A DNA stretch of 64,000 nucleotides from Candidatus Omnitrophota bacterium (GTDB taxonomy: Bacteria > Omnitrophota > Omnitrophia > Omnitrophales > Aquincolibacteriaceae). Positions 1 to 39,788 of this stretch are shown one piece after another. Under the pieces are notes generated by a model. The model ran no database searches. It had not been told where the DNA came from and saw only the letters and a list, made by a program, of their open reading frames with translations. Within the stretch, counting starts at the first letter, position 1. The number at the start of each line of letters is the position of its first letter. The position numbers and the translations under genes are program-made. The stretch covers positions 25,879 through 89,878 of the forward strand of contig JBDRCT010000036.1 in assembly GCA_043821445.1 (NCBI GenBank). The letters are read 5' to 3'.

Positions 1-11
1 AAGACTGAACA

Positions 12-1475
12 TTATCCGCTTAATTTTCTTTTATCAAAATAAATCCGCATTTCTTTTAATCTAAGCCCATAGTTCTTAATTAAATTTTGCGATTCATTAA
101 GAAACCCTAAAAAAGACCATACAAAATAAATTCGTAATCTTTGTTGAAGCGCGTAGATTTCCTTTTCAGGCACTCTCTCCCCGGCATGAAGAATGGCGTT
201 TCGTAAATCATAATCAGTTCTAAATTTTGTTTTCCACGTGTATCTGTCAGCTGCATTGAACGCTATGAATAAAGAAGCGTTTTCCGCCAGTTCATTACTG
301 TAGCCGCGGCCCGCTTCGCTAGACAATGAAATTAATGCTTCAATCGATACAAACAAACTAATAATAAAATCGTTCGGCTCATCATCCAAATATGATTTTA
401 AAAACCAGTCCAGCGACCTTCTAATTTTTTTTACTAATTGAGAATTGTCATATTTTTCTATAAGCTCGTTAAACTCTTTCAGGCGAAATCTTTTTTCAAA
501 ATCTGACAAAATTACTTTGTCTATTTGCCATTTATGCCCCGTTACTCTTAATTGTGAAAAGCGCGTATCTATTTCCTTATAATCGTCTTTATTAATGATA
601 AAATAATTTTGCTCGCCTCTTGGTTTCTCATTAAAGTTAGTTGTTTTTAACTGTTCTGCATCTATATTTGCGCTTTTTTCCTTGACGTTATCGAAAAAGA
701 ATTTCGCACAATAAATATATGCAAATACAATTTTAAATTCGTCTACCGCTTTATCAAAAATGATGGATTGCTCTTCATCGTGATGAAATCCGCTGGCACA
801 AAAACTCATCAGTGCATATTTGTCTTTGTCTTTTAATAATTTCTCTTTGCTAATTCTGCAGCGAAACGAACCTGCAAGGGCTAATGCTAAAAGCGCGGAG
901 CCACCTTCTGTTTCCGGCAATGAATTTAAAAAATCATCTGTTACTGGACCTATTTCGACTTTTCCAATTTTAGCTGCTGAAATTTCTTTAAAATTAATTA
1001 AATCTGTTAATAAGACCGCCTTATATTCCTTAAACCCTTTTTCAAAAATTTCTCTGAAATCTCGTATAGCAAAATGAATGTCGTCCGCACTTAAATATTT
1101 GTCTAGAGTGTCATTTATTACGGTGCCTCTCTTTTTTATCAATTCATATATTTTTCTTATAACTCGGTCACAAACAGAATACAAAGAGCTATCATTAATT
1201 TTGCATTTCCAGTTTCCTTCTCCGTCTAAGCCTATTATTCTAAAAAAAGCACCAAGGCTCCAATATATGCGCCAATACTTTAAATTATCTGCAAAGCTGT
1301 ACTTGTCTACAATTTGTGTGCCTAAAAAATCTTTTCCTAGTTTTTCTTCAGGGCCGATTTCACTAAGGACTATCTTTAAGAATTTTTCAGCATTGCTATC
1401 AAAAACAGAACTAAAACTGATTGCGCTTTGGTCCGAAGATTGTTCTTTTTCTTGTTTTTCTGATGCCTCATTCAT
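12..1475 (-). CDS. Large hypothetical protein (about 487 aa) with a C-terminal Rx4H (HEPN-like) motif; last gene of the SIR2 operon
   Basis: ORF 12..1493. The preferred start is the ATG at 1475 (MNEAS...), preceded by AAAGGAAC on the minus strand. The C-terminus reads ...DLRNAILHAGE (R-x4-H, as in HEPN RNase motifs). It is co-oriented and tightly spaced with three upstream genes. AT-rich codon usage. Confidence 0.55.
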   Translation of the reverse strand: MNEASEKQEKEQSSDQSAISFSSVFDSNAEKFLKIVLSEIGPEEKLGKDFLGTQIVDKYSFADNLKYWRIYWSLGAFFRIIGLDGEGNWKCKINDSSLYSVCDRVIRKIYELIKKRGTVINDTLDKYLSADDIHFAIRDFREIFEKGFKEYKAVLLTDLINFKEISAAKIGKVEIGPVTDDFLNSLPETEGGSALLALALAGSFRCRISKEKLLKDKDKYALMSFCASGFHHDEEQSIIFDKAVDEFKIVFAYIYCAKFFFDNVKEKSANIDAEQLKTTNFNEKPRGEQNYFIINKDDYKEIDTRFSQLRVTGHKWQIDKVILSDFEKRFRLKEFNELIEKYDNSQLVKKIRRSLDWFLKSYLDDEPNDFIISLFVSIEALISLSSEAGRGYSNELAENASLFIAFNAADRYTWKTKFRTDYDLRNAILHAGERVPEKEIYALQQRLRIYFVWSFLGFLNESQNLIKNYGLRLKEMRIYFDKRKLSG

Positions 1476-1533
1476 AAAAGTTCCTTTATGCAAAATAAAA
1501 AAGCAGTTCCCCTCTTTTAAGTGGAACTCATAT

Positions 1534-1746
1534 CTATCTTTTATTCCTTTTCTCTATTTCCTCTAAGCGCATTTTGAAGTCATTCCAATAGTTTATAAAC
1601 TTCATAAGCTCTTCATCATTTGAACGTAATGCTGAGGCAATTGTTTCTTGTTCAATGGTGCCCGTAAGACCAAACACTCTTTTTATTGCCTCGCCTAGTT
1701 CATTCCATGTTTTTACTGCTTGCTTTTTCAAGTCTTCACGCGCCAT
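1534..1746 (-). CDS. Small 70-aa helical protein of unknown function (operon member)
   Basis: ORF MAREDLKKQAVKTWNELGEAIKRVF... lies between the TM/TPR gene and the HEPN-like gene on the same strand. Gaps are 40 to 60 bp. Confidence 0.5.
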   Translation of the reverse strand: MAREDLKKQAVKTWNELGEAIKRVFGLTGTIEQETIASALRSNDEELMKFINYWNDFKMRLEEIEKRNKR

Positions 1747-1808
1747 TTTCCCCTCCTTGTTTTTATATAAAAAAAGCGGTTCCCTCTGGCTCGATTAATA
1801 CTTCTATG

Positions 1809-3242
1809 CTATTCATTTTCTGGAATAGCCTCTACTTGAGACTGTTCGGTTTCCATCTCGGCAATGTATTTTTTAGCCATCTCTGACAAGATACGCATTT
1901 GAGCAAAAGCGATGCTCTCTTTTAAAAAAATATGGAATTCTTGGGCAGAAGCATTAAAGTTTCCAATAATTTTATTCAACAGACCAATCGCAAATCTAAA
2001 TTGGACTTTTCCAGGATGTATATCAAAATAATGGCTAATAAATGCTATGACTTCCATGTATATGCCGCCTGCGGCTTCGCGCCCAAAAGCCTCTTCGTAT
2101 TCAGAAACTGCATGTTCATATTTTTCCTCACATAAGTCCAAGAAGGCGCTAGATAACCATGCGCTGGCAACCGTTTTTGAATATTCTTTTGCCAATTCGA
2201 TATGCTCTCGCGATTTTGAAACGTTATCCAAAAAGAAATAAAAAGTGGCGGCGCATAAGTGTGCTTGCGCCCAGTTTAATTTTTCATTTAAAGCTCGATT
2301 CGTTCTATCTAAACAAAATTCTATGCTTTTTCTGTCTATATTGAATCCCTTTGGCCGAAATATGTTGGTCCGATATACTACTTTCGCAGAATTCAAATAC
2401 GCCTCGCGAAGAAAAAATAATATTTTTTCTTTAAAAAGATATCGCCATTTAAAGTTTTGAATCTTTTTTGTTTCGATATTTTGCTTGAGGTCTTCGAAAA
2501 CAGCGCTGGCATTTTCGTAATGCCCGTATAGAAACAAGATTAATCCTAAAATGTATAATGTTGTTTCTCTTAAATTTTTTGACATTACGTCTAAGTCTAG
2601 GCTTTCATTTTCCTCATTAATGCTCCATCTGCGCCCACCAATTCCCATGCCCACAGCAGCACATGTTTGAATTTTTGGCATTAGCTCCATAATGGGTATC
2701 TTGTAAGTGAAATGTATTTTTGGAAACGTATAAAGCTTCTTCTTTTTTTGAGAAGCGACGCTCATATATCCCCAAATTATTAAACAACAGTTACTTTTTG
2801 AACGGATTTCATTCGCTTGCTCGACTGTCTCAATGCAATAATTGGGTGGCAAAGTGACAAGGCGAATAGAGCCACCCAAAGAGACATTAACCAATTCTTC
2901 TTTAAGTCTTTCTCTCAAATCTCTTATGACCTTTTGAACTTCTTCAGAGCCTCTTGGTGAAAATAAAACAGCTATTTCGTTATTTTTAAAAATGGGCATT
3001 CTGCGACCAAGCAACCAAAAAACAATTATTATTGCTGATAATAAAAAAAAGCCTATCAAATGCCCTGTTGGTAGCAATCTTGGATTGCTTTTTAACCCAT
3101 CAAAAGTAATCTCCAAAAGGGGTTTAATATTTGCTGCGCCAAAATGATAAACAATATTCGCCAGTATAATGCTGACGAACAAGCCCCTCCCTCTGTACCA
3201 CTGCGAATTAATCCAATCAAAAACTTTTATGTAATCAAACAT
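1809..3242 (-). CDS. Membrane-anchored protein (2 N-terminal TM helices) with an alpha/beta segment and a TPR-like helical C-terminus; unknown function
   Basis: 477-aa ORF. Hydrophobic stretches GLFVSIILANIVYHFGAA and LIGFFLLSAIIIVFWLLG. Then a beta-alpha-beta pattern (IAVLFSPRG..IRLVTLP..CCLIIWG). Then helical repeats. It sits immediately downstream of the SIR2-like gene. Confidence 0.55.
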   Translation of the reverse strand: MFDYIKVFDWINSQWYRGRGLFVSIILANIVYHFGAANIKPLLEITFDGLKSNPRLLPTGHLIGFFLLSAIIIVFWLLGRRMPIFKNNEIAVLFSPRGSEEVQKVIRDLRERLKEELVNVSLGGSIRLVTLPPNYCIETVEQANEIRSKSNCCLIIWGYMSVASQKKKKLYTFPKIHFTYKIPIMELMPKIQTCAAVGMGIGGRRWSINEENESLDLDVMSKNLRETTLYILGLILFLYGHYENASAVFEDLKQNIETKKIQNFKWRYLFKEKILFFLREAYLNSAKVVYRTNIFRPKGFNIDRKSIEFCLDRTNRALNEKLNWAQAHLCAATFYFFLDNVSKSREHIELAKEYSKTVASAWLSSAFLDLCEEKYEHAVSEYEEAFGREAAGGIYMEVIAFISHYFDIHPGKVQFRFAIGLLNKIIGNFNASAQEFHIFLKESIAFAQMRILSEMAKKYIAEMETEQSQVEAIPENE

Positions 3243-3356
3243 TGGTAGTTACCTCTCATGGGATACAAAAAAGGCGGCTCCCCTATTAAGAGAACCGCCC
3301 TCAATAATTCAAAATTCAAGACGCCCTTCAGGGCTTATTGCTGGGTAGTATAAACC

Positions 3357-4535
3357 TCATTTTTGTGAGTCGCTAGGGAAAGAAGAGAGCGAATCTGTAT
3401 ATTCTTTTAATCGCTTTTTTTCTATTTCAGTTATGATGCTTAACCGTCTGTCAAAAACTATGTTTGCTATTCGCTGAATGTATTTATCGCTGCAATTTAA
3501 TAGCTTCTCTTTAAATGGGAAAAATGCTTTCTCGGTCGCTTTTTTTTCATTAACAACATCCACGAATCTTTTATATGTCATGCAAACAAACCATATTTTG
3601 TCATGGCAATATTTTTTATAATGAGCCTCCATGTTTTCGTCCGGGTTGATTACCGTTATCCTCTCTTTCCCGGCCAACCTCTCGTCTTCATCTGCAACCG
3701 CAAAGTATGGATAACCGCTAAATAAAACCCTGCTCATTGTATCTTCTTTAGGAAAAGAATAGCCAATGTAAGTTTTATTAAGTGAATTACGTAATAAAGA
3801 GTAAGCGCTTGCCCACAAATCTTTTATAGGAATAAACAACTCATCTTTTTGGAGCAGTGGGGGTATAAAAAATGCCTCTTGGCCTTTCTCTTCGAACTCA
3901 TTGCGAAGTAGCTTTTGGCAAGCTCTAATCAAATATTTTGTTCTTTTACCATCGTCGTATTGGAGTATCTTTGTATAAAAAGCCGCATCCTTGGGTAATT
4001 CATCTACTGAAAACCAATCGATTGAACCATGTAATTTAAGTATTACGATATCTTGTTTTGTGATATTAAACCTGAATTCATATTTCTTCTGAATTTTATC
4101 AAGCTGTTTTTCAATAAGATTATCCCAATTAAATGTTATTACAGCATCTCCGGGTTTTAGCCTTTGGCAAAATTGATTCAGATATTGCTCGTTTTCAGAT
4201 TTGAAGTTTTCTATTTTCTTATCTAAAAGTCGACCGATTTCAAGATGGAATTCTTTTTTGAAATCGCTTACATATTTGAACAATGGGACGCCTAGAAGTT
4301 CATAGTAGTTTATTAATGAACGAAAATAATTATAAAAATCTTCCACATTAGGGTAATTCGCCAAGGCTGTTCTGAAGGAAGGATAAAAATTTATGCAGGT
4401 TGTATTAATTTTGTCAGCAAACGTTTCGCTGGTTCCATTGTTCACTAGCATCCCAAGAAATTCATTGGCTAGCGGTAAATCAAATGTCTTTGAGAAGCCA
4501 GCCCCTAGAATGTAGACGGTTCTATTTATGCTCAT
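3357..4535 (-). CDS. SIR2-like (DHS-like NAD-binding fold) protein, defence-type NADase family
   Basis: 392 aa. N-terminal YILGAGFS (GAGxS NAD-binding motif), ITFNWDNLIE (T-x-N-x-D) and LKLHGSIDW (catalytic His), in the order typical of SIR2_2/ThsA-type SIR2 domains. GGAGGG RBS 8 nt upstream. Confidence 0.75.
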   Translation of the reverse strand: MSINRTVYILGAGFSKTFDLPLANEFLGMLVNNGTSETFADKINTTCINFYPSFRTALANYPNVEDFYNYFRSLINYYELLGVPLFKYVSDFKKEFHLEIGRLLDKKIENFKSENEQYLNQFCQRLKPGDAVITFNWDNLIEKQLDKIQKKYEFRFNITKQDIVILKLHGSIDWFSVDELPKDAAFYTKILQYDDGKRTKYLIRACQKLLRNEFEEKGQEAFFIPPLLQKDELFIPIKDLWASAYSLLRNSLNKTYIGYSFPKEDTMSRVLFSGYPYFAVADEDERLAGKERITVINPDENMEAHYKKYCHDKIWFVCMTYKRFVDVVNEKKATEKAFFPFKEKLLNCSDKYIQRIANIVFDRRLSIITEIEKKRLKEYTDSLSSFPSDSQK

Positions 4536-4689
4536 TTGGGTAATATACCCTCCAATTTTTCTTTGAGCCAGAGAAAGCTACAGCCGATACCCTTTAGCTC
4601 AAAATAAGTGATTTTGCTAAAGACCTTAATCCCCTAGACCCTGCCGTAGGGAAAAGTTTGAGTAGTGGCTTTTGAAGGGACGATTTTTT

Positions 4690-4750
4690 GTTATGGCTAT
4701 GACGGTATTCCCGAACATCATTGAGCCTTAAATCGCTTTTAATGGCCGAA
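4690..4750. repeat. Left copy of imperfect direct repeat (att-like); perfect 20-bp core CTTAAATCGCTTTTAATGGC at 4731..4750
   Basis: TTATGGCTAT...CTTAAATCGCTTTTAATGGC recurs at 12364..12429. The integrase gene ends 170 bp to the right. Confidence 0.55.
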
Positions 4751-4916
4751 TTTTGTTTTCCTTAAAATCGATAGAAAGAAACAGTAGGTAGTATATTGAA
4801 AAGAATTGAGACCTCGCTAAATTCGACCCGTACCCTCTAGGAGATAAAGGGGGCAATCTGACTCTTAGTCAGATGCTCTTTGGGGCTTGAGGGAAAAACG
4901 AAAGGATATAACCCTC

Positions 4917-5993
4917 TTAATTTGAGGCGGTTGCGGTAACGTTTGCCGAGGGAGTATTTGGGGTAACGGCTTCTGGTGACTTATTGGTGACTATATTTTT
5001 CCCGAGTAGGGCTACAGCTTTATTCTTGTGGGACTGGCTGAGATGGGAGTACCTGAGGGTCATTTCTAAGGATTTATGCCCGAGCAGTTCTCGGATAGTA
5101 TTAAGGTCTACGCCACTCATAGCCAAATGAGAAGCGAAAGTATGTCGAAGGTCGTGAAATCGAAAATCTTCTATCTTTGATTTCTTCAGAGCGGTCTGAA
5201 AAGCCTTTCTAAAATTAAACGGTTTCCCGTCCTCTCCGCAAAAGACATAGCTGCTTTCAGAATGCCGTTTAATCGATGCGAGAGCTTTCCTGATATTTAG
5301 ATTAAGCGGACAGTATCGTTTTTCATCGTTTTTTGTCTGCATCAAGGCAATTACTTCGTTCACATAATCAACATCTTCCCACTTCAGACCTTGAATCTCT
5401 CCCTTTCTCATCCCTGTATTAAGAGCAACTTCAACAATCGCTCTTAGCTTCGGAGAACAGTGCCCTAGTAGAATTTGAATCTCTTCCTTGGACAAAAATC
5501 TAAGCCTCCGGTTATCCTCTTTAAAAAATTTCACCTTCTTGACCGGATTTTCGGTCGCTTTCCCCCATTCCACTGCTTTTGAATACATCACCTTTAGACA
5601 AGCGAGCTCCCGGTTAACAGTAGCCTTACAAACGGTTTTAAGCCGTTCTTCCCGGTATCTTTCAATCATCAGCGGAGTAATTTCATAGAGATACCTTTTA
5701 CCAAACGGAGGCATGAGACGATTCAGGATAGTCTTATCTGTTTTCTCCCATGACTTTTTATTTGGTTTAGCATAGAGCTCAAGGTAATCACCCGCGAAGT
5801 CTTTGAATCTTATTTTTTTGAGCTGCTTAATGTCTAGGTGCCTATTTTCAATTACCTCAACTTCCCGTTTCATTAAGACAGCCTGAGCTTGCTTTTTGCT
5901 ACGCCCTATCTTCTGGCGCATTCTTCTTCCTTGAGCGTCGTAGTAATCGATATACCAATCTTCTCCTCTGTTCTTCCTCTGATAAATTCCCAT
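4917..5993 (-). CDS. int: Tyrosine recombinase / phage-type integrase
   Basis: 358 aa. The C-terminus carries the catalytic signature ...HDLRHTFASHLAMSGVDLNTIRELLGHKSLEMTLRYSHL (R..HxxR..Y). N-terminal SAM-like region. Confidence 0.9.
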   Translation of the reverse strand: MGIYQRKNRGEDWYIDYYDAQGRRMRQKIGRSKKQAQAVLMKREVEVIENRHLDIKQLKKIRFKDFAGDYLELYAKPNKKSWEKTDKTILNRLMPPFGKRYLYEITPLMIERYREERLKTVCKATVNRELACLKVMYSKAVEWGKATENPVKKVKFFKEDNRRLRFLSKEEIQILLGHCSPKLRAIVEVALNTGMRKGEIQGLKWEDVDYVNEVIALMQTKNDEKRYCPLNLNIRKALASIKRHSESSYVFCGEDGKPFNFRKAFQTALKKSKIEDFRFHDLRHTFASHLAMSGVDLNTIRELLGHKSLEMTLRYSHLSQSHKNKAVALLGKNIVTNKSPEAVTPNTPSANVTATASN

Positions 5994-6054
5994 TGTCCTT
6001 ATCTCCTTTTCCTAGAATTTGATGCAAAGTAAGCATTATTGTTATTAATTATAG

Positions 6055-6261
6055 TCATATTATACTTGCTGATATTGAATAGTCAATAACTGGATGGATT
6101 CTTTCATCTAGCCATTTTTCGATATCCGTGCGCTTGAACCTGAGAAGCCTTCCGACTTTAACGAAGGGTATTTCTCGCTTGTGAATCCATGAGTAAAGTG
6201 TGTTGGGGCGAATTTTTAAATAATCCGATACTTCCGTAGGGGTCATTAGCTCTGACTGCAC
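6055..6261 (-). CDS. xis: Excisionase-family / AlpA-like HTH DNA-binding protein
   Basis: 68 aa. TPTEVSDYLKIRPNTLYSWIHKREIPFVKVGRLLRFKRTDIEKWL matches the excisionase-family HTH pattern. It lies directly upstream of int. Confidence 0.7.
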   Translation of the reverse strand: MQSELMTPTEVSDYLKIRPNTLYSWIHKREIPFVKVGRLLRFKRTDIEKWLDERIHPVIDYSISASII

Positions 6262-6439
6262 TGTTCGTTGTTATCCTTTCTGATAATCATTTGGCGCCTA
6301 TAAGGCTTGGTATAATCTATAAAGACTTCATTTTCTGAAGAATGTAAGAATAACCGGCCTAGGCTACGAGTATTCAAAAACTGAAGCGTAAGGGGTCCTC
6401 TGATGGCACTTGACGCTTTATTTATTGACGAATGACACT

Positions 6440-6781
6440 TCATAACTTGAACCTAGAAATTGCATTGTCGTACCTCCCAGTAAGTTTGTAATAAGTGGTA
6501 AATCTATACTTACCTCCAACCGTCCGGCTTCTTTCAATCCACTCTTTCTGTTCCAGCCCCTTAAAAGCTTTGGCAATAGTCGCAGAGGCCATAATGTCTT
6601 CCATCTCACTGTAGTGGAGGCAAATATCGCCGTTATTGGCCCCGTTGAATTTATACTTAAGATGGATATATAAAATTTTCTCGGAAGAAGTAAGTCCGCT
6701 CCTCCACGCTGGGTTTTTTAAAAGTTCACGCTCTAAAGCCACAAAAGGTTTAAATTGATTTTTCCTTTTATTTGCTCCCAT
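6440..6781 (-). CDS. Hypothetical 113-aa protein of the integrative element
   Basis: Clean minus-strand ORF between xis and the iteron-like repeats. No recognisable motif. Confidence 0.4.
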   Translation of the reverse strand: MGANKRKNQFKPFVALERELLKNPAWRSGLTSSEKILYIHLKYKFNGANNGDICLHYSEMEDIMASATIAKAFKGLEQKEWIERSRTVGGKYRFTTYYKLTGRYDNAISRFKL

Positions 6782-7077
6782 TTTTATCTCTTTTCAGATT
6801 TATGTATCTTTACGCTCCCGTTTGAATTTTTAGCATTGTTAATACCGTTCGTCCTTTAACGGATTTGAGCCCTTGTAATAGCCCAGGATTACAACAATCC
6901 TCTGGGCAAGGGTTAGGCTATTTTTTTTAAAGAAGCCGAGCCGTTTGAAAATGAGGACAAACCAAAATCTTCATGGCAGCGTGTTGTTTGCAAACGCAAG
7001 CGCATTGCTGGCACTTAGGATTAACCTTATTAGGTTTGCCCTTATAAAATCGGATATACTCCTTTTTCCCCATACGT

Positions 7078-7215
7078 TATGACCTCCTCTCCTAACCTTG
7101 TTAAGTATCAAAAAGGGGTGACAAGACTCCCCTTATGAGAAAAGAGATAGCACCTCTCCTACTAAGGATAAGTGTCAAAGAGGTATGACAAGAAATGAGG
7201 GGAAAAGAAAAAAGA
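7078..7215. repeat. Two ~45-bp imperfect direct repeats (iteron-like)
   Basis: CCTCTCCTAaccttgtTAAGTaTCAAAaAGGgGTGACAAGA and CCTCTCCTActaaggaTAAGTgTCAAAgAGGtATGACAAGA are adjacent. They lie between the 385-aa and 113-aa genes. Confidence 0.5.
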
Positions 7216-7237
7216 GAGAGGGAAAAGGTTGTTGAAC

Positions 7238-8395
7238 TTATTTTTTCTTAAAAAAATTAACGCAAGTGAGGGCTTGCTTCGCAGAGTAGACGCATTTCGA
7301 ATTTACTAGTTCCGGCTTAGGGATATTTCCTTTATGCGAGTGTCTAATAAGCGTTCTCTCTGAAACTTTTAATTTTTCAGCTAACTTCTCACGGCTTACA
7401 AAATTTTTGGGTGGTTCTCGTCTTACTCTTTGTCTTACTAGTTCTAGCAAAGGTGCATAGTCACAAGGTCTGTAAATTCTACAATACCTTCTTCCTTTTA
7501 GCTCCCATTCGGATTTGTAAATACCATTTATGTCCAAATTTCTAAGTGTCTGGGGAGAACAATGAACATAAGCAGCCATTTGCTTAACCAATATTTCTTG
7601 ATTCTCATCAGGAAAGTGCGAAATTGGCATGGGAGCAATCGCTCGTCTGTTTTTTTGTTGTATTTTTCCTCTTTCATTGTTCACAATTTCGTAGCAATCA
7701 CTCTCTGATGGTTTTCTCTCAAAAGCATTTCTTAGAGAATGCGCTTTTCGCCGAAGAAGCCCTATAATCCATTCCATAGCTCTAAAACGTTTGTTCTCCG
7801 AAATTTTTTTACATGCTTCCAAGATTACAGAATAAACTTCGCCTTCAGTAAAAACCTGATAATTCTTTTTTATAAGGGGAGTTACACCCCTATCAAGCTT
7901 TTCACGGATTCTTTTTATTGCGCATTCATCTTTCTTACTCGCGCGAAGAACCAAATCATAGTCTAAAGAAACTAAATCCTTCGCTAACTTAACAGCGCCT
8001 TCACAAAATTGTTTTAATCGCTTTTCAAAGTTTGCGTTTTGGGTAATGACATATTTGGAAAACGGATGCATCTTTCCGTTTTTAATAGACTTTTGCCTGT
8101 TAAAAAGGCTGGCTATGGTTTGGCGTCGCATTTCCGCAAATCTGAGCCTTCTTAACTTGGTTTTTACTAGAGCCTTTATTAATGATTTTTTCTTTCCTTC
8201 TTTCGATATATAAAATTTTAACCATGCGCACTTTTTTCTTAATCTATTTTCTTCTTCTATGATTGAATTTAATGCATTCTTCTGAGCTTGCCCCGATAGG
8301 AAGTAATCGCTTGCTTCTTTGAAGTGTTTATCTTTTTTGTAGGCATCGAATAGACTTTTGGTGCTTTTATCCATATTACCTCTAATTTTGGACAA
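7238..8395 (-). CDS. Hypothetical 385-aa basic protein with C-terminal HTH-like segment; possible replication/regulatory protein of the element
   Basis: K/R-rich ORF. The C-terminal REKLAEKLKVSERTLIRHSHKGNIP resembles an HTH. It is adjacent to the iteron-like repeats. Confidence 0.4.
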   Translation of the reverse strand: MSKIRGNMDKSTKSLFDAYKKDKHFKEASDYFLSGQAQKNALNSIIEEENRLRKKCAWLKFYISKEGKKKSLIKALVKTKLRRLRFAEMRRQTIASLFNRQKSIKNGKMHPFSKYVITQNANFEKRLKQFCEGAVKLAKDLVSLDYDLVLRASKKDECAIKRIREKLDRGVTPLIKKNYQVFTEGEVYSVILEACKKISENKRFRAMEWIIGLLRRKAHSLRNAFERKPSESDCYEIVNNERGKIQQKNRRAIAPMPISHFPDENQEILVKQMAAYVHCSPQTLRNLDINGIYKSEWELKGRRYCRIYRPCDYAPLLELVRQRVRREPPKNFVSREKLAEKLKVSERTLIRHSHKGNIPKPELVNSKCVYSAKQALTCVNFFKKK

Positions 8396-8561
8396 TTATA
8401 GCAAGGAACGACTGGAAGTACCGTCTCAAAAGAGGCTAGCGTTGATATTTACGAGGGGATATAGAGAAAGGGAAATATTTAACTTCGGAAAAAAAGGATT
8501 AATTTTTAACCGTAGAGTTATCAAAATTCGACCGTCTTCTCATCGATATTTAACCGAAAGG

Positions 8562-8813
8562 CTACCGAGATAACGCGCCGGAGAGAAATAACCAAATTCC
8601 ATATACTATAATTGAAAGCACTAAGCCAATTATGCTAGTAATTAAACCACCTGTTGCGATACCATTAGGAAATTTTTTTATTTGCTTCGTCGAAAAAACA
8701 ATCCCCGAAACGCCAATTGCGATACCTACTAAACCGATTAATGGCCCAATGATAATGCTTAAAATTCCTAGCACCAAGCCTGCTATCCCGAAACCATTTT
8801 GATTTTTCTTCAC
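8562..8813 (-). CDS. Small polytopic membrane protein (83 aa)
   Basis: Gly/Ile-rich hydrophobic helices (GIAGLVLGILSIIIGPLIGLVGIAIG...). Confidence 0.45.
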   Translation of the reverse strand: MKKNQNGFGIAGLVLGILSIIIGPLIGLVGIAIGVSGIVFSTKQIKKFPNGIATGGLITSIIGLVLSIIVYGIWLFLSGALSR

Positions 8814-8977
8814 GCGATTTTTCCTCCCAACTCCCAGGACAGGAGTCCAACCACAGCTAAAATTATGACTGGCGATATCAAGGCCATATCCATCATTTTA
8901 ATTTGCTTCGTTAAAGATTTTTCCTTCGGAATATTTTGAATTTCTTCGGCACAATACGGACATTTTTTTGTCCCCAT
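8810..8977 (-). CDS. Small zinc-ribbon plus single-TM protein
   Basis: MGTKKCPYCAEEIQ..., then a hydrophobic helix. GGGAG RBS upstream of the ATG at 8977. Confidence 0.4.
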   Translation of the reverse strand: MGTKKCPYCAEEIQNIPKEKSLTKQIKMMDMALISPVIILAVVGLLSWELGGKIA

Positions 8978-9002
8978 AGTTTTTCTCCCTTTTTTCTTAT
9001 TT

Positions 9003-9524
9003 TTAAACCTGATGCCGCTCTGAGTGCCGCTGATGTTTGTTCCAGTTATCACGGTATTTTTTTGCTAAGATTTTATCTTGAACCACCAAAAGATTTTCCG
9101 CATTTTTGTCTTCTGCTGTGTTGGTGAAGTTGAAAGACCCTGTTATCACAATAACTTCGTCAATAATCATAACTTTGTTGTGTGCTATCGAGTGTTTGCT
9201 ATCTATGCTTACAGGCACCCCAGTTTCTATCAATAAATTTAGTTTGCTTCCCTTAGCGTGTTTTTGACTTTTGTCGAGTAAAATTTTTACTCTCACACCC
9301 CTTTTGTGGGCATTTACAAGAGCCTCTGCTATCGGTTGCGATGTGAAAGAATATGCCTGAACAAGAATTGAGGTTTGGGCTTGGTCTATAGCGTCAACAA
9401 TAGCTTGGGTACAACCGCCTTTAGGAGAAAAGTATGCGTGAGGAACTGCATCAACAGCAGGAAGAAACGGAAAAAAATGGCTGCTTAGTAATAGTAGAAC
9501 AAGAACTGTTTTTTTAATTTTCAT
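9003..9524 (-). CDS. Secreted phospholipase-D-superfamily endonuclease (Nuc-like)
   Basis: Signal peptide MKIKKTVLVLLLLSS. PLD HKD motif HNKVMIID (H-x-K-x4-D) followed by GSFNFT. Size (173 aa) is typical of Nuc. Confidence 0.75.
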   Translation of the reverse strand: MKIKKTVLVLLLLSSHFFPFLPAVDAVPHAYFSPKGGCTQAIVDAIDQAQTSILVQAYSFTSQPIAEALVNAHKRGVRVKILLDKSQKHAKGSKLNLLIETGVPVSIDSKHSIAHNKVMIIDEVIVITGSFNFTNTAEDKNAENLLVVQDKILAKKYRDNWNKHQRHSERHQV

Positions 9525-9538
9525 GCTGCAGCTTATTG

Positions 9539-10324
9539 CTATTTTTGAGGTTGAGCCGTATAAATAAAGCCTTCGCTGTCGTAAGCCTTTAGCGTACCGT
9601 CCTCAGCAATTATCACATAGTCGCCGAATGAATTATTGGGATTTGCATACAGGCGTTCTTCACCCGAAATATTTTTGACAAACAGCTCTTTTATGTCGCC
9701 ACTCCCATCTCGAAATTTTCTCTCTCTAATATATTTCCCACCTTTTTTTCGAATAATAACTCTATGCGCGAGAGAGGGGGCCCACTCGTCAAACCATCTG
9801 CCAACCAAGATGCCATTCTCGTTCTCTAATGGAGGCACATCGTCTTTGGCGGCGGGAGAATCATACTTATCAGCCCATTGAACCTTGGTCTCATAACCGC
9901 TTCTGTCATTTGAAGCCGCTATGTCTGCGGTTACTGCACATTGACTACCAGGATTGCCCGCTGGACACCAAAGCACCATTGCGACATTAAAAGAACCCAC
10001 GGCTTCAGGGTCTGTATCGTAAACAAGCATATGAATTCGGTCTATTTCACTATCTTTGTTTCTAATGTCTAGGATTGCTGCATCTATTATTTTTTTATAT
10101 TGTTCTTTGGTTAAATCAGGTTTGACGGTGATACTGCATCCCATTGTTTTGATTTTAGGTAGCGAAGCTAGTTCAGTTAAAGTATAGGAAGAGGCTGGTC
10201 TGCTCAACGCCGAAATGCTACTTTCATTGTTTGACTTAATTTGATAGTCCGCCTCTGCAAAACAAGGTGAGCTGAGAGCGCTGAGGACTGCGATGGCGAG
10301 TAATACCACTATCATCTTCTTCAT
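9539..10324 (-). CDS. Secreted protein, paralogue A (shared C-terminal ~90-aa domain)
   Basis: Signal peptide. C-terminal GRWFDEWAPSLAHRVIIRK...GEERLYANPNNSFGDYVIIAEDGTLKAYDSEGFIYTAQP aligns with the C-terminus of the next gene. Confidence 0.55.
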   Translation of the reverse strand: MKKMIVVLLAIAVLSALSSPCFAEADYQIKSNNESSISALSRPASSYTLTELASLPKIKTMGCSITVKPDLTKEQYKKIIDAAILDIRNKDSEIDRIHMLVYDTDPEAVGSFNVAMVLWCPAGNPGSQCAVTADIAASNDRSGYETKVQWADKYDSPAAKDDVPPLENENGILVGRWFDEWAPSLAHRVIIRKKGGKYIRERKFRDGSGDIKELFVKNISGEERLYANPNNSFGDYVIIAEDGTLKAYDSEGFIYTAQPQK

Positions 10325-10358
10325 GGTGAACCCCCTAAGTTAGAAAGACAAGACGACC

Positions 10359-11300
10359 TCAATTAATCAAAAATGGAGGTTGTTCTTTTCGTGGTTCGTT
10401 CCTATAGAGGAAACCTTCCTTGTCATAATAGTTGAGCCAACCATCCTTGGCGATAACCATATAGGCGCCTGAAGAATTCCCAGGTTTGTCGGTTAGCCGT
10501 TCCTCACCAGCAACACGTGTAACCGAAAGCTTTTCTTCGCTGCTGTTTCCTTCCTCGTATATTTTTTTTATAAAATATTCTTCCCCACTCTTTCGAATCA
10601 CAACAATGTGAAAAGGGATAGACCAGACATTAAACCATCTTCCCAACACAACCCCACTGTTATAATCAGATGACTTATCGAGATTGCTTTCGGTGTAAAG
10701 TTCGGATTGTTTAGGTTTCATAATCGCATCTAGGGATAAAATCTCACCACATTGTTTCAAGGCATCATTTAAAAAATCGAGACGAATGTCCATTTGCGGA
10801 TTTTTTCCTTTCAACAAATCCCCATAGTCGAAACGTAAATTAAATAAATAAGACAAGGCGACTAACATTTGCCGCTTTGCTTCAGCGCTTTCTGGACACG
10901 TCGTAGAAACCGATTGGGTTTTTTGTTTTAGGGCTTCGAGTTGTTTTGACCAATTAGCTGACCAGCCACTCCACGGCAGCTTTTGAAATTCTTCCGCTGC
11001 CTTTAAATCATCACCTTTGAGAGCGTAAGCTAAGCTTATAGAGGTATCTTCATGGTTGGGGTTATAATTTTGTTTTTTAAACTCCTGATATTTATTTATT
11101 AACTCTCCATGCATTTCCTCGGTTTGCTTTAAAAGGATTGTTAGCTCATTCAGTTCCGAATGTTTGACTATATATTCATTTTTTATACGGGACGTGCCGT
11201 TTTCTTTTACAATTACTGTGGTTGCATCACAAGGAAACGGTAGTATCAAAATCAGCAAAAGAGAGAATAGGGCTTTAATTATCGAAAGATGTTTTCTCAT
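10359..11300 (-). CDS. Secreted protein, paralogue B (shared C-terminal ~90-aa domain)
   Basis: Signal peptide. C-terminal GRWFNVWSIPFHIVVIRK...GEERLTDKPGNSSGAYMVIAKDGWLNYYDKEGFLYRNEP. Confidence 0.55.
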   Translation of the reverse strand: MRKHLSIIKALFSLLLILILPFPCDATTVIVKENGTSRIKNEYIVKHSELNELTILLKQTEEMHGELINKYQEFKKQNYNPNHEDTSISLAYALKGDDLKAAEEFQKLPWSGWSANWSKQLEALKQKTQSVSTTCPESAEAKRQMLVALSYLFNLRFDYGDLLKGKNPQMDIRLDFLNDALKQCGEILSLDAIMKPKQSELYTESNLDKSSDYNSGVVLGRWFNVWSIPFHIVVIRKSGEEYFIKKIYEEGNSSEEKLSVTRVAGEERLTDKPGNSSGAYMVIAKDGWLNYYDKEGFLYRNEPRKEQPPFLIN

Positions 11301-11400
11301 AAATCCCCTTTACGCTTTGTAGACTATCGTCTTCCGCAGAAGCTTTAGTTTGAATAAAAAGCAGACAGAAAAAACAGCTTTTATTGCGTGAGAATGTTAA

Positions 11401-11622
11401 TCAGCGATTAAGATATGCTTGGTAAGCGCCATCAATGAGAAATTGCTCAGGCGTACCAGTGGCCCTAGACTTGTTGGCGATACTAGATTTAATTTCAGAG
11501 GGAGTTTTGCCAATCACGGAGGCGATGTAGTTTATTTTTTCCTCATTGCTTTCGGCATAGGCTTGAACTATAGGGCACGTCAAAAAACATATTAAGAGAA
11601 GTATAGCTATACGCAGATTCAT
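11401..11622 (-). CDS. Small secreted protein (73 aa)
   Basis: Signal-peptide-like N-terminus. Confidence 0.4.
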   Translation of the reverse strand: MNLRIAILLLICFLTCPIVQAYAESNEEKINYIASVIGKTPSEIKSSIANKSRATGTPEQFLIDGAYQAYLNR

Positions 11623-11660
11623 TGTGGCTGTCCTTCGTGGGTTTATCGTTAGTATATTTT

Positions 11661-11957
11661 TTAGTTCGTATCGCTAACTTCAAATAGACCGTACATTCTG
11701 CTGATGCTCATTGATAAGACGTTTGAATCGCTGGAATCATAGAAACTATTAAAAGCACCGTAATAAAAATTCCAATCATGCTTACCAATGCTAGCTAAAT
11801 TTTGACAAATATTGACTTTGGCTTCATAGTTCGCTTTTTGCCAAGCATAGCCATCATCAGTCATGGTTAAGCTGTCAGTAGCAAGAGCCACTGAGCACAC
11901 CGTCAGGAAAAGAAGAGTAAGAACGGTTATTTTCTCCTGGCTCATATTTCCTCCCAT
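11661..11957 (-). CDS. Small secreted protein (98 aa)
   Basis: Signal-peptide-like N-terminus. Confidence 0.4.
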   Translation of the reverse strand: MGGNMSQEKITVLTLLFLTVCSVALATDSLTMTDDGYAWQKANYEAKVNICQNLASIGKHDWNFYYGAFNSFYDSSDSNVLSMSISRMYGLFEVSDTN

Positions 11958-12029
11958 TTTGTAGACTATCGTCTGTAGAGTTATAGTCTACATTTAGCAA
12001 TCATATGCCTCAAGGATATTCTGGGGTAT

Positions 12030-12251
12030 ATGCAAACCATACAAAAAGCTTTCGGGTTAGCCGTCAGGAAATACCGCTATGGGCTAGGTTTGTCTCAAGA
12101 GGAATTTGCTGAAAAGGCGGGGATTCATAGAACCTATGTCTCGGATATTGAACTGGGCAAGGTCTCTATCGGGCTAAGCGTGGCTCAAAAGCTAGCTTCG
12201 GTATTTGGTTTGAAACTGAGCGAATTAATCAAAAAAGCCGAGAAATATTAG
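12030..12251 (+). CDS. XRE-family HTH transcriptional regulator
   Basis: GLSQEEFAEKAGIHRTYVSDIELGK is a classic Cro/C1-type HTH. Confidence 0.75.
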   Translation: MQTIQKAFGLAVRKYRYGLGLSQEEFAEKAGIHRTYVSDIELGKVSIGLSVAQKLASVFGLKLSELIKKAEKY

Positions 12252-12363
12252 TTTCCCGCTTTCACCTTCCTTTAAATCTGCTAAAGAATTAAAAACCTGT
12301 CAAATCGATTTTTCCCCCTGGGGGAATTTAGCTAAAAAGGGCTATTTTTGACATTACAGCTCT

Positions 12364-12429
12364 TCTTTTTCTTTATGGCTATCACCCCTATTAGGAAGGA
12401 ACCCAGGGGCTTAAATCGCTTTTAATGGC
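12364..12429. repeat. Right copy of imperfect direct repeat (att-like); core CTTAAATCGCTTTTAATGGC at 12410..12429
   Basis: Shares TTATGGCTAT and a perfect 20-bp core with 4690..4750. Confidence 0.55.
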
Positions 12430-12539
12430 TTGTTTTTCTTCGAAGGGTATATAGCACAGTTATTTGCGAGCAGATACATTGGCAAGAATTGCGAAAGCTT
12501 TAAAGATACCTGCTGGAAAATTGCTTGTCCTTTAATCTG

Positions 12540-13121
12540 TTAGACCTGATTAATCGCTTCCCCGCTCATTGCTTTGCGCGCAGGCTTATCGATATTATTT
12601 TCTTGTCCGCTGATTGAGGGAATCCATATTGGAAATTTATACAGCAAGCTAAGTCTTTTTTGTTCCAGAGCCGCCAGCGATACCTGCTCAGTAGCGATTC
12701 TCATATCAATCATTACTTTAATAAGACCCCCGCTATATTCCGCACTTTCTTTTTGAGAATCAGAAATACTCCCCTTAGCCTTAGCTATTTCTTCCTCCAA
12801 TCGCTTGATTTCTTTTGTTGAATCAACAGCTTCATCAATCGCTTCCCCATTTACCGAGTAGCTAATTTTTATGAACTTATTAATTCCCTGCCTTTTTTGC
12901 TCTAACATGGCTAGTGTATTTTTATAAATTTGCTCTCTAACTGTTAATAAATCTAGGACTAGTCCTCCAGAATAGTTTTGCTTCTCTTTTTGAAGTTCAG
13001 CTACCTGGGCGTTAAGACTTGTGATTTCTGAATCTATTTTTTTGGTATCGATTGGTTGGGCGCAACTCGTCAGCATGAGCGATAGAAGAAAAAGTATCCC
13101 CCCTCTTTTCGGGCTTTTCAT
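12540..13121 (-). CDS. Lipoprotein with coiled-coil segments
   Basis: Lipobox LTSCAQP after the signal peptide. Heptad-like repeats. Confidence 0.5.
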   Translation of the reverse strand: MKSPKRGGILFLLSLMLTSCAQPIDTKKIDSEITSLNAQVAELQKEKQNYSGGLVLDLLTVREQIYKNTLAMLEQKRQGINKFIKISYSVNGEAIDEAVDSTKEIKRLEEEIAKAKGSISDSQKESAEYSGGLIKVMIDMRIATEQVSLAALEQKRLSLLYKFPIWIPSISGQENNIDKPARKAMSGEAINQV

Positions 13122-13129
13122 ATGGCTCC

Positions 13130-13699
13130 TTATAATTGTTTTACTGCTTTTTCTTCATTAAGTTTTTTGGCAATTACTGCCAGCGCCTTGCATTCGTATC
13201 TAATCATCAATCCTAAGGTGAAGTTATCCCCAAAAAGCACTAACTGAATAATGGATTCTGGGGTATCCCACTCCGAAAAATAGGCGCCTTCGCCGGTAGA
13301 AATTGCCGTTGCGTCGTCTATGAATTGATTGTCGCTACCTTTTCTTGCTTTTTGTTTCGGTTCGCCGTATTTCTTTTTTAAGAGACTCTCAAATTCATCG
13401 AACTTTGAAATGTAGGTTTTTTTATTTGTTGTTTTTATTTGTATTAAAACCCCCGTTTGATAAAGCTTTCTTTCGACAAATTGAAAGCCTATTTGAACAT
13501 TTTCACCAGAGATCGTGCTTAAGAAAAACGGGGTCCCATCGCTGTCCGTTTTAAAATCCATATTAGGAAAAGCGGCTTTGACTTGCTCAAGACTCATTCC
13601 CCACTTAGCATTTTGATAGCCCTCTGTAAAATCAGAAGCACTACTGCTGGTGATTGGCATTATTAAAAGAAACATTAGCATTAAGGTTCTTTTCCCCAT
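13130..13699 (-). CDS. Secreted hypothetical protein
   Basis: Signal peptide MGKRTLMLMFLLIMPITSSSAS. Confidence 0.5.
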   Translation of the reverse strand: MGKRTLMLMFLLIMPITSSSASDFTEGYQNAKWGMSLEQVKAAFPNMDFKTDSDGTPFFLSTISGENVQIGFQFVERKLYQTGVLIQIKTTNKKTYISKFDEFESLLKKKYGEPKQKARKGSDNQFIDDATAISTGEGAYFSEWDTPESIIQLVLFGDNFTLGLMIRYECKALAVIAKKLNEEKAVKQL

Positions 13700-15512: not shown

Positions 15513-15767
15513 CTATGGCTTACAAACCTTGCATGGAATATACCCAGCCTGCATTGCCTCTTCCTTGCTGCTGAATCCAACGAGGTTAGAGGGCTTAATT
15601 CTTTTTGCCCAAACACAAGATGGACGATGGTATTTATTCGATTTACTAGACCCCACGTAAGTCATTTCCTGCTTCTGGGCATAGGTAGTGGGTGTTACTA
15701 CATGGGGAAAAACGAGGATGGAGATTGTGAGAATAACGCTAACGAGAAACGGGCGTAGTAGTTTCAT
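15513..15767 (-). CDS. Small secreted protein with Ada-like Cys4 metal-binding domain
   Basis: Signal peptide. YHRPSCVWAKRI...FSSKEEAMQAGYIPCKVCKP matches the Ada N-terminal zinc-binding pattern (PSC...EA..AGYxPCKxCxP). It overlaps the thermonuclease gene by 29 nt. Confidence 0.5.
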   Translation of the reverse strand: MKLLRPFLVSVILTISILVFPHVVTPTTYAQKQEMTYVGSSKSNKYHRPSCVWAKRIKPSNLVGFSSKEEAMQAGYIPCKVCKP

Positions 15768-16362
15768 TTTCTTTTCTCCTTATTTGCTCCGAAAGTTTCA
15801 GCTTGGCAATGTAATCTAGAACAGACTTTCTTTGCTCTTCAGTGAGTCCCTCATACTCTGCAATCAGTCCTTTAATTTCATCATCTCCAACGGTCATCTT
15901 CCAAAGCCCAAGTTGCTTTTCCCGAGCTTCTTGTTCAAGTTTCCTGAATTCCTCTAGTCGCTTAAAGGGAAATCTCGTATATGCAAACCCATAACCTTGC
16001 TTGATTATTTCGGCATTAAGAAACAAACCGTCTGAGTCTCGATAGACATAAGCAAGGGTGCGACCATACTTGTCTTTCTTCTCCCAATCATATTCCAGTC
16101 GGATTTCTTTTCCTTCCATCAATTTTTTAACAAACTGGTATGCCTCTTCAGCAAAGTACTGAACGGGTTTACTAGGGTGGTGTAACTCCGGAGTATCTAC
16201 GCCTATTAAACGCACTTTTTCACCGTTGGAGAGCTTTATAGTATCGCCGTCAACGCAACGAGCAACAGTAAGAGAATCGGTGGCTGTGGAGATCCTAGAA
16301 GTAAAAAGGGGGCTGCCCAAGATGAGCAGCCCCCAGAATGCTATTCGTTTATTCAGTCTCAT
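15739..16362 (-). CDS. Secreted thermonuclease (staphylococcal nuclease / SNase fold)
   Basis: VDGDTIKL...RLIGVDTPE...YGRTLAYVY...LNAEIIKQGYGFAY are hallmark SNase motifs. N-terminal signal peptide. Confidence 0.8.
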   Translation of the reverse strand: MRLNKRIAFWGLLILGSPLFTSRISTATDSLTVARCVDGDTIKLSNGEKVRLIGVDTPELHHPSKPVQYFAEEAYQFVKKLMEGKEIRLEYDWEKKDKYGRTLAYVYRDSDGLFLNAEIIKQGYGFAYTRFPFKRLEEFRKLEQEAREKQLGLWKMTVGDDEIKGLIAEYEGLTEEQRKSVLDYIAKLKLSEQIRRKENETTTPVSR

Positions 16363-16935: not shown

Positions 16936-17240
16936 CGTTATCAATGGCAATGCCTTTCTCCATAAGGGACACCCCACTTCTCGCAATTGGTGCGACAGTA
17001 ATGACAGCCATCTGAAGCAGTGCGTCCTGGGTGGGCAAAAACTACTACTTGGGCGAGACAAAGCAACAGTAAAGTGAGGGCGAGTATCTTCTTCATGGCG
17101 AGCCTCCCTTTGTAGGCGGGTAGTATAAACCTAATTAATATGGCTGACTAGACGAGTTTCCTTGGACAAATCCTCTGTCTGGTGTCTATATGGTGACTAA
17201 AATAGGTCCAAATTAATCAAAATACAGCAAACTACTTACA

Positions 17241-18772: not shown

Positions 18773-18867
18773 TGGCGGAGGGGGGGGGATTTGAACCCCC
18801 GGTGACGCTTTAGGCGCCACAGCGGTTTAGCAAACCGCCGCACTAAACCGGGCTATGCGACCCCTCC
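18773..18867 (-). tRNA. tRNA-Ser (anticodon GCU), class II with long variable arm
   Basis: Minus strand GGAGGGG..D-arm..GCGGT-TTGCTAA-ACCGC (anticodon GCT)..long variable arm..GGGGGTTCAAATCCCCC..CCA. Confidence 0.8.
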
Positions 18868-19112: not shown

Positions 19113-19167
19113 TCCGCCAGAGGCGGATCCGCCTCTGGCGGAAAACCGAGCTATGCGACCCCTCCAT
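19113..19167 (-). repeat. Perfect palindrome (13-bp arms, 2-nt spacer) fused to a 20-nt duplicate of the tRNA-Ser 5' end
   Basis: CCGCCAGAGGCGG-AT-CCGCCTCTGGCGG at 19113..19140. CCGAGCTATGCGACCCCTCC at 19146..19165 matches the tRNA 5' end at 18848..18867 with 1 mismatch. Confidence 0.6.
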
Positions 19168-29191: not shown

Positions 29192-32042
<2,851 letters not shown>

Positions 32043-32075
32043 GAAGAACCGTTCTATTATCGTCTTTTTCCCGGG

Positions 32076-33176
32076 CTAGTTGAGTTGCATCGGCATGATC
32101 ACGTAGAGATATCCTTCTCGCCCCTTGATCAGGCCCGGCTTGTCGGGACTTGTTAAGGAAATACTGATGTTTTCGTCGGAGAGGTTTTTTAAAACGTCTA
32201 AAAAATATCCTGGGTTGAACCCGATAGTTAGTTCCTCCCCCCTAAAGTCCGCTGAGAGCTCTTCTTTAGCCTCTCCCATGTTGGGCGTTTTTGCGGAAAC
32301 AATGATTTTATTTTTAATAAAGTCGAACTTAAGCGCGGGGGCTTCTGGAGAGGTTAAAAGAGAGGCCCGGCGGACCGCTTGAAGAAGTTCTTCCCGGTTT
32401 GCTTGAACCTGGGCCTTTTCTTCTTTGGGAATTACCTGGTCGTAATTGGGGAAATTCCCCTCAATAAGACTAGAGGTAAGATAGGTGTCCTCAAAACAAA
32501 AAATGACTTTGTTCTGGGCGCAAATAATTTTCATCACACCTTCCCACGCTAAGAGTTTTAAAAGTTCGTGGATGGTTTTTGAGGGAATAATTATTTCTAT
32601 ATTTTGGATGTTTTTTTGTTTGGTTTCTTTTTTATAAAACGCTAATCTCCTTCCGTCCGTGGCCACAAACCGTATCTGGTTCCCCTGAATACAAAGAAGA
32701 ACCCCGTTTAAAACATATCTTGTTTCATCATGGGAGATCGCAAAAGAAGTTAATAAGAGGCTTTCTTTCACAACCGATTGTTCTAACTCGATCGCTCCCT
32801 CAAGGGAAAATTCTGGTAATTTAGGATACTCCTCTTTATCTAACCCTAAAATTTTAAAATTAGATTTTCCCGCTTTAATATTAATAGTGTTGTTTTTAGT
32901 AACGTTAATTTCAACGCTCCCCTCTGGTAGTTCTTTAATAATGTCAAAGAATTTTCTTGCGGGAACAGTGATGCTTCCCCCTTGAAGAACTTCCACAGAT
33001 AAGAGTGTTGATATCCCTACCTCCATATCCGTTGCGATAATTTTAAGTTTTCCGTCTTTTTGTGTTTCTAGTAAAAAGTTATTTAAGATGGGGAGGGTGC
33101 TTGGCTTGGATGCGGCTATATTGACCCCTAAAGTGATCTTTTTTAACAACTCACTCTTTTGCACTTTGATTTCCAT
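32076..33176 (-). CDS. dnaN: DNA polymerase III beta sliding clamp
   Basis: 366 aa. MEIKVQKSELLKKITLGVNIAAS start and three-domain architecture. Immediately downstream of dnaA. Confidence 0.92.
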   Translation of the reverse strand: MEIKVQKSELLKKITLGVNIAASKPSTLPILNNFLLETQKDGKLKIIATDMEVGISTLLSVEVLQGGSITVPARKFFDIIKELPEGSVEINVTKNNTINIKAGKSNFKILGLDKEEYPKLPEFSLEGAIELEQSVVKESLLLTSFAISHDETRYVLNGVLLCIQGNQIRFVATDGRRLAFYKKETKQKNIQNIEIIIPSKTIHELLKLLAWEGVMKIICAQNKVIFCFEDTYLTSSLIEGNFPNYDQVIPKEEKAQVQANREELLQAVRRASLLTSPEAPALKFDFIKNKIIVSAKTPNMGEAKEELSADFRGEELTIGFNPGYFLDVLKNLSDENISISLTSPDKPGLIKGREGYLYVIMPMQLN

Positions 33177-33233
33177 AAAAGCTCCTTCTTTTATTATTCT
33201 ATATTTTAAAACAGTAACCTTAGTAACAACCCC

Positions 33234-33304: not shown

Positions 33305-33307
33305 AAC

Positions 33308-39786: not shown

Positions 39787-39788
39787 AT

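Follow-up and report, generated by a model that had tools for sequence, protein, structure and literature searches.

SIR2 proteins of bacterial defense systems share a SIR2_2-type Rossmann core with a GAGxS motif and a catalytic Asn and His residue. Examples include ThsA of Thoeris, DSR1 and DSR2, the SIR2 proteins of SIR2–HerA and SPARSA, and KomC of Kongming. In Thoeris, the C-terminal domain of ThsA is of the SLOG (or Macro) type, and the TIR-domain protein ThsB is encoded next to it. DSR1 and DSR2 are single proteins of ~1000 amino acids (aa), in which an N-terminal SIR2 domain is followed by a long C-terminal sensor region. HEPN proteins constitute another effector kind. ApeA, AbiA, PD-T4-5, and PD-T7-3 contain a C-terminal four-helix HEPN domain with an R-x4-H motif that is fused to differing N-terminal domains, and HepT toxins are single-domain proteins of ~130–150 aa that are paired with a nucleotidyltransferase antitoxin. 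The locus described here encodes one protein of each kind. It lies at positions 12–4535 of a 64,000-nucleotide window (the whole stretch of DNA that was analyzed) on a 97-kb contig of a Candidatus Omnitrophota metagenome-assembled genome (MAG). Four minus-strand open reading frames (ORFs) are found there, encoding, in the direction of transcription, a SIR2 protein, a 477-aa membrane/repeat protein, a 70-aa protein, and a 487-aa HEPN protein (Table 1); all four products are labeled hypothetical in the public record. On balance, the 4.5-kb stretch is probably a row of independent accessory genes on one arm of a low-GC island and not one four-gene machine. The evidence favors ordinary defense-island biology, in which mobile effectors that each consist of a single gene accumulate independently at an integration hotspot. 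Immunity in Omnitrophota is almost unstudied, and a literature search combining both terms found nothing.

A sequence-only reading of this stretch had proposed a single novel defense operon of four co-directional, tightly spaced genes in an AT-rich island beside an integrative element. The ORFs and their setting were borne out: the GC (guanine plus cytosine) content is 34 to 37% at 1 to 5 kb versus 50 to 57% at 17 to 31 kb, and a tyrosine integrase gene and an excisionase-like gene are located directly upstream. The spacing was described only in part correctly. The three spacers are short (114 bp for SIR2/477-aa, 62 bp for 477-aa/70-aa, and 58 bp for 70-aa/HEPN), but the genes do not overlap anywhere, and the first spacer contains a strong terminator. 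This putative intrinsic terminator directly follows the SIR2 stop codon and is the best terminator-like site in positions 1–6500. Its hairpin recurs in both the minimum free energy and the centroid folds of the 114-nt spacer, and transcription presumably ends there. The hairpin of the 70-aa/HEPN spacer is weaker and comes with a U-run (z −1.3), and no terminator hairpin was found in the 477-aa/70-aa spacer.

The SIR2 protein exhibits the motif set that had been read from its sequence. In a 30-sequence alignment, the columns G11-A12-G13-x-S15, N136, D138, K167, and H169-G170-S171 are invariant, which comprises the GAGxS motif of the glycine-rich NAD-binding loop and the N-x-D and HGS motifs with the catalytic Asn and His; W174, P226, K230, G258, and D265 are invariant as well. 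The NADase-like assignment also holds. Generic SIR2 models of PADLOC match the protein at 6.2e-7 (best) and weaker; across the family, the generic SIR2 model matches 28 of the 30 members and the Aga_SIR2 model 21. Among solved structures, the family profile matches KomC (1.2e-7), the SIR2-like protein 8w9l (2.5e-7), and human FAM118B (7e-7), followed by 8j4u (1.2e-4), Sir2 superfamily proteins (1.7e-3), and ThsA (4.6e-3). These matches are confined to the first ~300 profile positions, that is, to the catalytic core. Herein, profile positions 135–176, which hold the N and H region, align to residues 108–155 of ThsA (6lhx), a segment that we take to include the ThsA catalytic residues Asn112 and His152. 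In its sequence, the protein looks like an active, nicotinamide adenine dinucleotide (NAD+)-consuming SIR2, from which we infer NADase activity.

Compared with the defense SIR2 proteins named above, the Rossmann core, the GAGxS motif, and the catalytic Asn and His are shared. Unlike them, the protein comprises only 392 aa, consisting of the SIR2 domain and a C-terminal tail of ~60 residues, an extra helical segment that is carried by the close subfamily. A SLOG, APAZ, or large sensor domain is absent, and the protein is far from the architecture of DSR1 and DSR2. The ThsA models of PADLOC match only its SIR2 core (6.7e-5), and none of the four proteins yields a SLOG or TIR match. HerA, pAgo/APAZ, and KomA/KomB, which would mark SIR2–HerA, SPARSA, and Kongming, respectively, were not found in the neighboring genes by Pfam and PADLOC. 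The protein is, accordingly, assigned to none of these systems, nor to Thoeris or DSR. The earlier statement that TIR, HerA, pAgo, STAND, and SLOG partners are absent was thereby confirmed, the partner proteins having no above-threshold match in Pfam, PADLOC, or NCBIfam.

The SIR2 family comprises ~390 homologues, the majority of which are annotated with PF13289 (precomputed annotation), and nine close homologues with 41 to 58% identity stem from Omnitrophota-like MAGs and metagenomes. Gene neighborhoods were compared over 85 other SIR2 loci, 80 of which came from scanning a single genome for each species. Around the close homologues, for which six contexts were inspected, the adjoining genes differ throughout: a 90-aa gene and an FRG-domain gene (L001), a 210-aa gene (L002), a 437-aa gene with a SEC-C gene (third context), a 575-aa gene upstream (L003 and L004), and a Y1 transposase (L005). 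By tblastn, the three partner proteins have no relatives in the close contexts. Relatives of the 477-aa and 70-aa proteins are missing from all 85 loci, over which the largest cluster of neighboring ORFs covers four loci. SIR2-only proteins of ~330 to 400 aa are a widespread family without a conserved partner, and one may ask how a SIR2 domain on its own stays inactive and how it gets triggered. With respect to location, the SIR2 homologue of L005 (45% identity) is accompanied by an integrase that is 42% identical to that of the window, with a tRNA 3′ fragment between them, and the homologue of L002 lies 3 kb from tRNA-Ser(gct), the same tRNA as in the window. Judged from these three cases, such SIR2 genes seem to sit at integration hotspots, outside the integrase elements themselves. 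The closest homologue (58% identity) belongs to Ca. Saelkia tenebricola (L001), where the FRG-domain gene is immediately downstream. The same contig (noted span 10840–13292) encodes a Gabija-like pair of an OLD/TOPRIM ATPase and a UvrD helicase, which the SIR2 homologue precedes by ~7.5 kb. Farther along the contig, one gene matches PLD faintly.

The HEPN gene can start at an ATG at 1475 (487 aa) or at a TTG at 1493 (493 aa); the former is the annotated version and agrees with the homologue alignment. The protein consists of an N-terminal α/β domain (residues ~20–340) and a C-terminal α-helical HEPN domain (~345–485). Its DLRNAILHAGE motif, from which a HEPN RNase had been suspected at the outset, corresponds to R425-x4-H430 and is invariant in 27 homologues, as are E379, N399, and G432. 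With an α-helical HEPN fold and an R-x4-6-H motif, the protein shows the hallmarks of the HEPN superfamily and is predicted to be a ribonuclease (RNase). The N-terminal domain holds an invariant G229-x-H-x3-E235-x-S237; no recognized counterpart of this domain was found. A word-index search had made the protein appear an orphan, which was overturned by the relatives retrieved with exhaustive HMMER. The family is nevertheless rare, with 55 matches among 1.84 billion representative proteins. Pfam, NCBIfam, and PADLOC contain no significant model for the protein (PADLOC: none at E up to 1). The DzbB and MauJ models each touch two of the 27 relatives, at 1.5e-4 and 1e-4, respectively, and a literature search for DzbB found nothing. 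This two-domain family of ~465 aa, lacking a model in these three collections, is a candidate for a new single-gene RNase toxin or defense protein.

In its domain arrangement, with a C-terminal four-helix HEPN domain carrying R-x4-H behind a different N-terminal domain, the protein resembles ApeA, AbiA, PD-T4-5, and PD-T7-3. The likeness extends to its solitary occurrence in mobile or defense-type neighborhoods, but the PADLOC models of ApeA and other named single-gene HEPN systems do not match it. Among 34 other loci of the family, part of which were retrieved with a 10-sequence alignment, no relative of the SIR2, 477-aa, or 70-aa protein is found. Several neighboring genes belong to types common in defense islands and on mobile elements: FRG-like and PLD-like genes, ABC/OLD-type ATPases, and integrases homologous to that of the window. 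Because its relatives occur alone, with shifting neighbors and often near integrases, the HEPN protein is most likely autonomous. Short versions consisting of the HEPN domain only (~181 aa; L112–L114 and L118) adjoin a 424-aa integrase that is likewise homologous to the integrase of the window. In addition, an identical partial copy of the HEPN gene (V1673_03045; 191 aa, corresponding to 12–587) ends an 85-kb contig of a second Omnitrophota MAG. The assembly of this MAG, hence, breaks inside the HEPN gene, possibly because strains differ at the island.

Taken together, the four-gene block is repeated in none of the 85 SIR2 and 34 HEPN loci. The sequence-only reading had itself suggested looking for the block in other genomes and had named missing co-conservation as a reason to give up the idea of one operon. 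This search was run and the genes are not co-conserved, which, along with the terminator behind the SIR2 gene, tells against a single novel operon.

The two genes between the SIR2 and HEPN genes look like real genes. The 477-aa protein had been described as membrane-anchored and TPR-like, and this description stands: hydropathy analysis shows two hydrophobic segments (residues 21–39 and 55–85), and the ARM_TT21_N model matches below threshold (9.2e-8; 32.5 bits versus a cut-off of 40). The N-terminal hydrophobic segments are followed by a middle region and C-terminal TPR/ARM-like helical repeats. A word-index search of 5.8 billion proteins returned only the protein itself, no relatives were found in scans of metagenome or viral contigs, and PDB sequences and PHROGs gave no matches. 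The 70-aa gene is preceded by a strong Shine–Dalgarno sequence (AAGGAGGGG) 4 nt before its ATG. Its product forms a one-member 90% cluster in the protein collection and has no significant family match in Pfam, PADLOC, NCBIfam, or PHROGs, only library scans and local comparisons having been run; a PADLOC Csm2 match at 0.02 is at chance level. The exhaustive HMMER search covered the HEPN protein alone.

From these features, the following mechanism can be proposed. A 7.7-kb integrase element (~4727–12429) would have inserted beside a low-GC accessory stretch that holds two or three independent units. The first would be the bare SIR2 enzyme with its own terminator, kept inactive until an infection cue arrives; once triggered, it would hydrolyze NAD+ and starve the infected cell. 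The second would be the HEPN protein, most likely an autonomous single-protein toxin or an abortive-infection–type RNase. As in related HEPN enzymes, RNA would be cleaved at its R-x4-H site, with the conserved N-terminal domain as the probable sensor or regulator. Both enzymes would, in this scheme, serve defense. The 477-aa, 70-aa, and HEPN genes possibly form one second transcription unit, wherein the 477-aa protein could be a local trigger and the 70-aa protein an inhibitor; nothing outside the source genome supports these two roles.

Several observations weigh against independent genes. All four are co-directional, of similar GC content, and separated by only 58 to 114 bp, so that read-through or shared regulation may take place. 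A strong terminator is lacking between the 477-aa, 70-aa, and HEPN genes, and a young, lineage-specific system built around two singleton genes may be compatible with the absent co-conservation. The SIR2 protein itself falls just short of the Pfam SIR2_2 family (PF13289; 24.4 bits at a cut-off of 24.5). Furthermore, when the HEPN-family profile was run against all ORFs from the 85 SIR2 loci, SIR2–HEPN adjacency was seen elsewhere. In a Rubrobacter MAG (L079), a 409-aa HEPN protein (6358–7584) is encoded directly upstream of a 366-aa SIR2 protein (7692–8789; SIR2_2 25.4 bits), which begins ~100 bp after it. The full profile matches the HEPN protein at 2e-17 and an independent, C-terminal-only profile at 8e-12 (nominal database size of one million), and the protein weakly matches Pfam HEPN_RiboL-PSP (8e-4), the family listed for ApeA and the PD-T4/PD-T7 HEPN systems (PMC10952713). 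In an Aenigmatarchaeota MAG (L088, 953–4095), a 633-aa HEPN-motif protein is encoded ~20 bp behind the gene of a 407-aa SIR2 protein and shows the matching motifs KIRRALRW and KIRNSLLIHGGE; with the independent profile, its score is marginal (E 0.023), and it becomes strong only after iteration. A HEPN match 7 kb from the SIR2 gene of L042 is apparent only after iteration. The SIR2 neighbors in L079 and L088 are distant SIR2_2 homologues of the window protein. Given the rarity of the HEPN family (55 in 1.84 billion), the adjacency exceeds naive chance and is a weak hint that SIR2 and HEPN are functionally linked. A literature search found no named SIR2–HEPN system or pair, and none of the known SIR2 and HEPN systems covered in a review unites the two (PMC10952713).

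The alternative that survives best leaves the SIR2 gene aside as unrelated and joins the other three genes into a module of a HEPN toxin, a 70-aa antitoxin or inhibitor, and a membrane/TPR trigger. It agrees with the gaps of 62 and 58 bp, in which no significant terminator was found, and with the strong ribosome-binding site on the 70-aa gene. Many HEPN toxins have an antitoxin encoded upstream as their partner, as established for HEPN–MNT systems, and nearly every member of the HEPN family described here has a co-directional gene upstream. However, BLASTP and phmmer detected no homology among these upstream genes, nor to the 477-aa or 70-aa protein. A two-domain protein of 487 aa also differs from the HepT toxins of HepT/MntA systems, no MNT-type nucleotidyltransferase domain was found in the neighboring genes, and autoinhibition could be provided by the N-terminal domain of the HEPN protein itself. 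A three-gene module is unlikely.

Less weight still is given to a functional coupling of SIR2 and HEPN, whether both are effectors or one regulates the other, in varying gene order and with the 477-aa and 70-aa genes as lineage-specific insertions. In another, equally improbable version, an NAD+-depleting and RNA-cleaving pair would have been assembled repeatedly, in Omnitrophota, in Actinomycetota (L079), and in a DPANN archaeon (L088), with a lineage-specific membrane/TPR sensor and a 70-aa regulator added in the window. The close spacing in L079 and L088 speaks for such a pair, and chance adjacency is improbable for so rare a family unless both genes concentrate in defense islands. Both gene types do, however, concentrate in such islands, and the co-location of unrelated defense genes there is a well-known confounder. 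The pairing occurs in only two of the 85 SIR2 loci and is missing from all 34 loci of the close HEPN family, and the match of L088 is marginal before iteration. The inspectable relatives of the L079 protein (P0170 and P0166) show no SIR2 neighbor, one of the two contigs being very short. In the window, moreover, the two genes are parted by the terminator and two further genes.

If true, the single four-gene system, in which a membrane/TPR sensor would drive SIR2 (NAD+ depletion) and HEPN (RNA cleavage) as joint effectors, would connect a membrane sensor, a SIR2 NADase, and an RNase in a new way. The common strand, the short gaps, and the shared low GC content are consistent with it, as are the effector-type nature of both enzymes and the lack of known SIR2 partners. 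It is nonetheless very unlikely: a terminator follows the SIR2 gene, the block and any pair of its genes are absent from the 119 related loci, bar the two domain-level SIR2–HEPN cases, and the proposed sensor has no evolutionary support, since the searches returned no relatives for the 477-aa protein and covered the 70-aa protein only in part. Scarcely credible, finally, is a non-immune cargo of a regulatory SIR2 deacylase or ADP-ribosyltransferase and a noncatalytic or housekeeping RNA-binding HEPN protein: both folds exist outside immunity and the window proteins stay under the threshold of every named defense-system model, but the catalytic residues are strictly conserved, the best solved-structure matches of the SIR2 family are defense NADases, and the distribution is patchy across phyla, in variable neighborhoods rich in mobile-element and defense-type genes.

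Table 1. Features of the four-gene locus and its surroundings in the window.
Feature	Coordinates	Strand	Basis or remark
SIR2_2-family protein, 392 aa, ABH891_07085	3357..4535	-	ORF, SIR2 motifs, homologues
Intrinsic terminator, putative	3270..3302	-	15-bp stem, 3-nt loop, then UUUUUUG
477-aa membrane/repeat protein, ABH891_07080	1809..3242	-	ORF, hydropathy
70-aa protein, ABH891_07075	1534..1746	-	ORF
487-aa two-domain HEPN protein, ABH891_07070	12..1475	-	ORF, R-x4-H motif
Tyrosine integrase	4917..5993	-	Phage_integrase 3.5e-38, Int_N 1.3e-8
HTH_17 excisionase-like gene	6055..6261		Adjoins integrase, upstream of the four genes
Direct repeat, left copy, 20 bp, CTTAAATCGCTTTTAATGGC	4727..4746	.	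blastn-short E 2.4e-4
Direct repeat, right copy, 20 bp, CTTAAATCGCTTTTAATGGC	12410..12429	.	blastn-short E 2.4e-4
XRE-type HTH gene	12030..12251	+	
PLD-family nuclease, 173 aa	9003..9524	-	PLDc_2 2e-30
SNase-domain protein	15739..16362	-	SNase 8e-26
tRNA-Ser(gct)	18773..18867		
Partial tRNA-Ser(gct) copy, 24 nt	19143..19166		96% identical to the 5′ end
Direct repeat, 17 nt, exact, TTTGTAGACTATCGTCT	11316..11332 and 11958..11974		

The surroundings of the four genes resemble a defense island. Between the integrase and SIR2 genes lies the left copy of an exact 20-bp direct repeat, which encloses 7.7 kb together with the right copy. This stretch contains the integrase, the excisionase-like gene, a 385-aa helix-turn-helix (HTH) protein, small membrane proteins, a PLD nuclease, and, at its far end, the XRE-type HTH gene. 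The repeat pair is read as the attachment-site (att) duplication of a 7.7-kb integrative element, its copies being candidate sites. On this reading, the four genes fall outside the element and belong to the low-GC DNA into which it inserted. A 15-bp repeat (3343–3357 and 17118–17132), which would place the SIR2 gene inside a mobile element, is possibly due to chance (E 0.23), and the 20-bp repeat was preferred. Low-GC DNA extends to ~17.1 kb of the window, and tRNA-Ser(gct) is positioned close to the high-GC edge of the island. A partial copy of the 5′ end of this tRNA gene, 298 bp off, is possibly the remnant of an old integration or rearrangement.

Within the integrase element, the best PADLOC matches of the 173-aa PLD nuclease are the DrmC models of DISARM (5e-15); other DISARM genes were not seen. 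Past the element, but still in low-GC DNA, the SNase-domain protein matches the PADLOC “SNc+LTD” model (3e-34). Between the two copies of the 17-nt repeat, only small signal-peptide–like ORFs of 73 and 98 aa are present. More low-GC patches occur at 32000–34000, 39000–40000, and 51000–53000 (41 to 44% versus ~52 to 55% in their surroundings), and these three may represent further accessory insertions.

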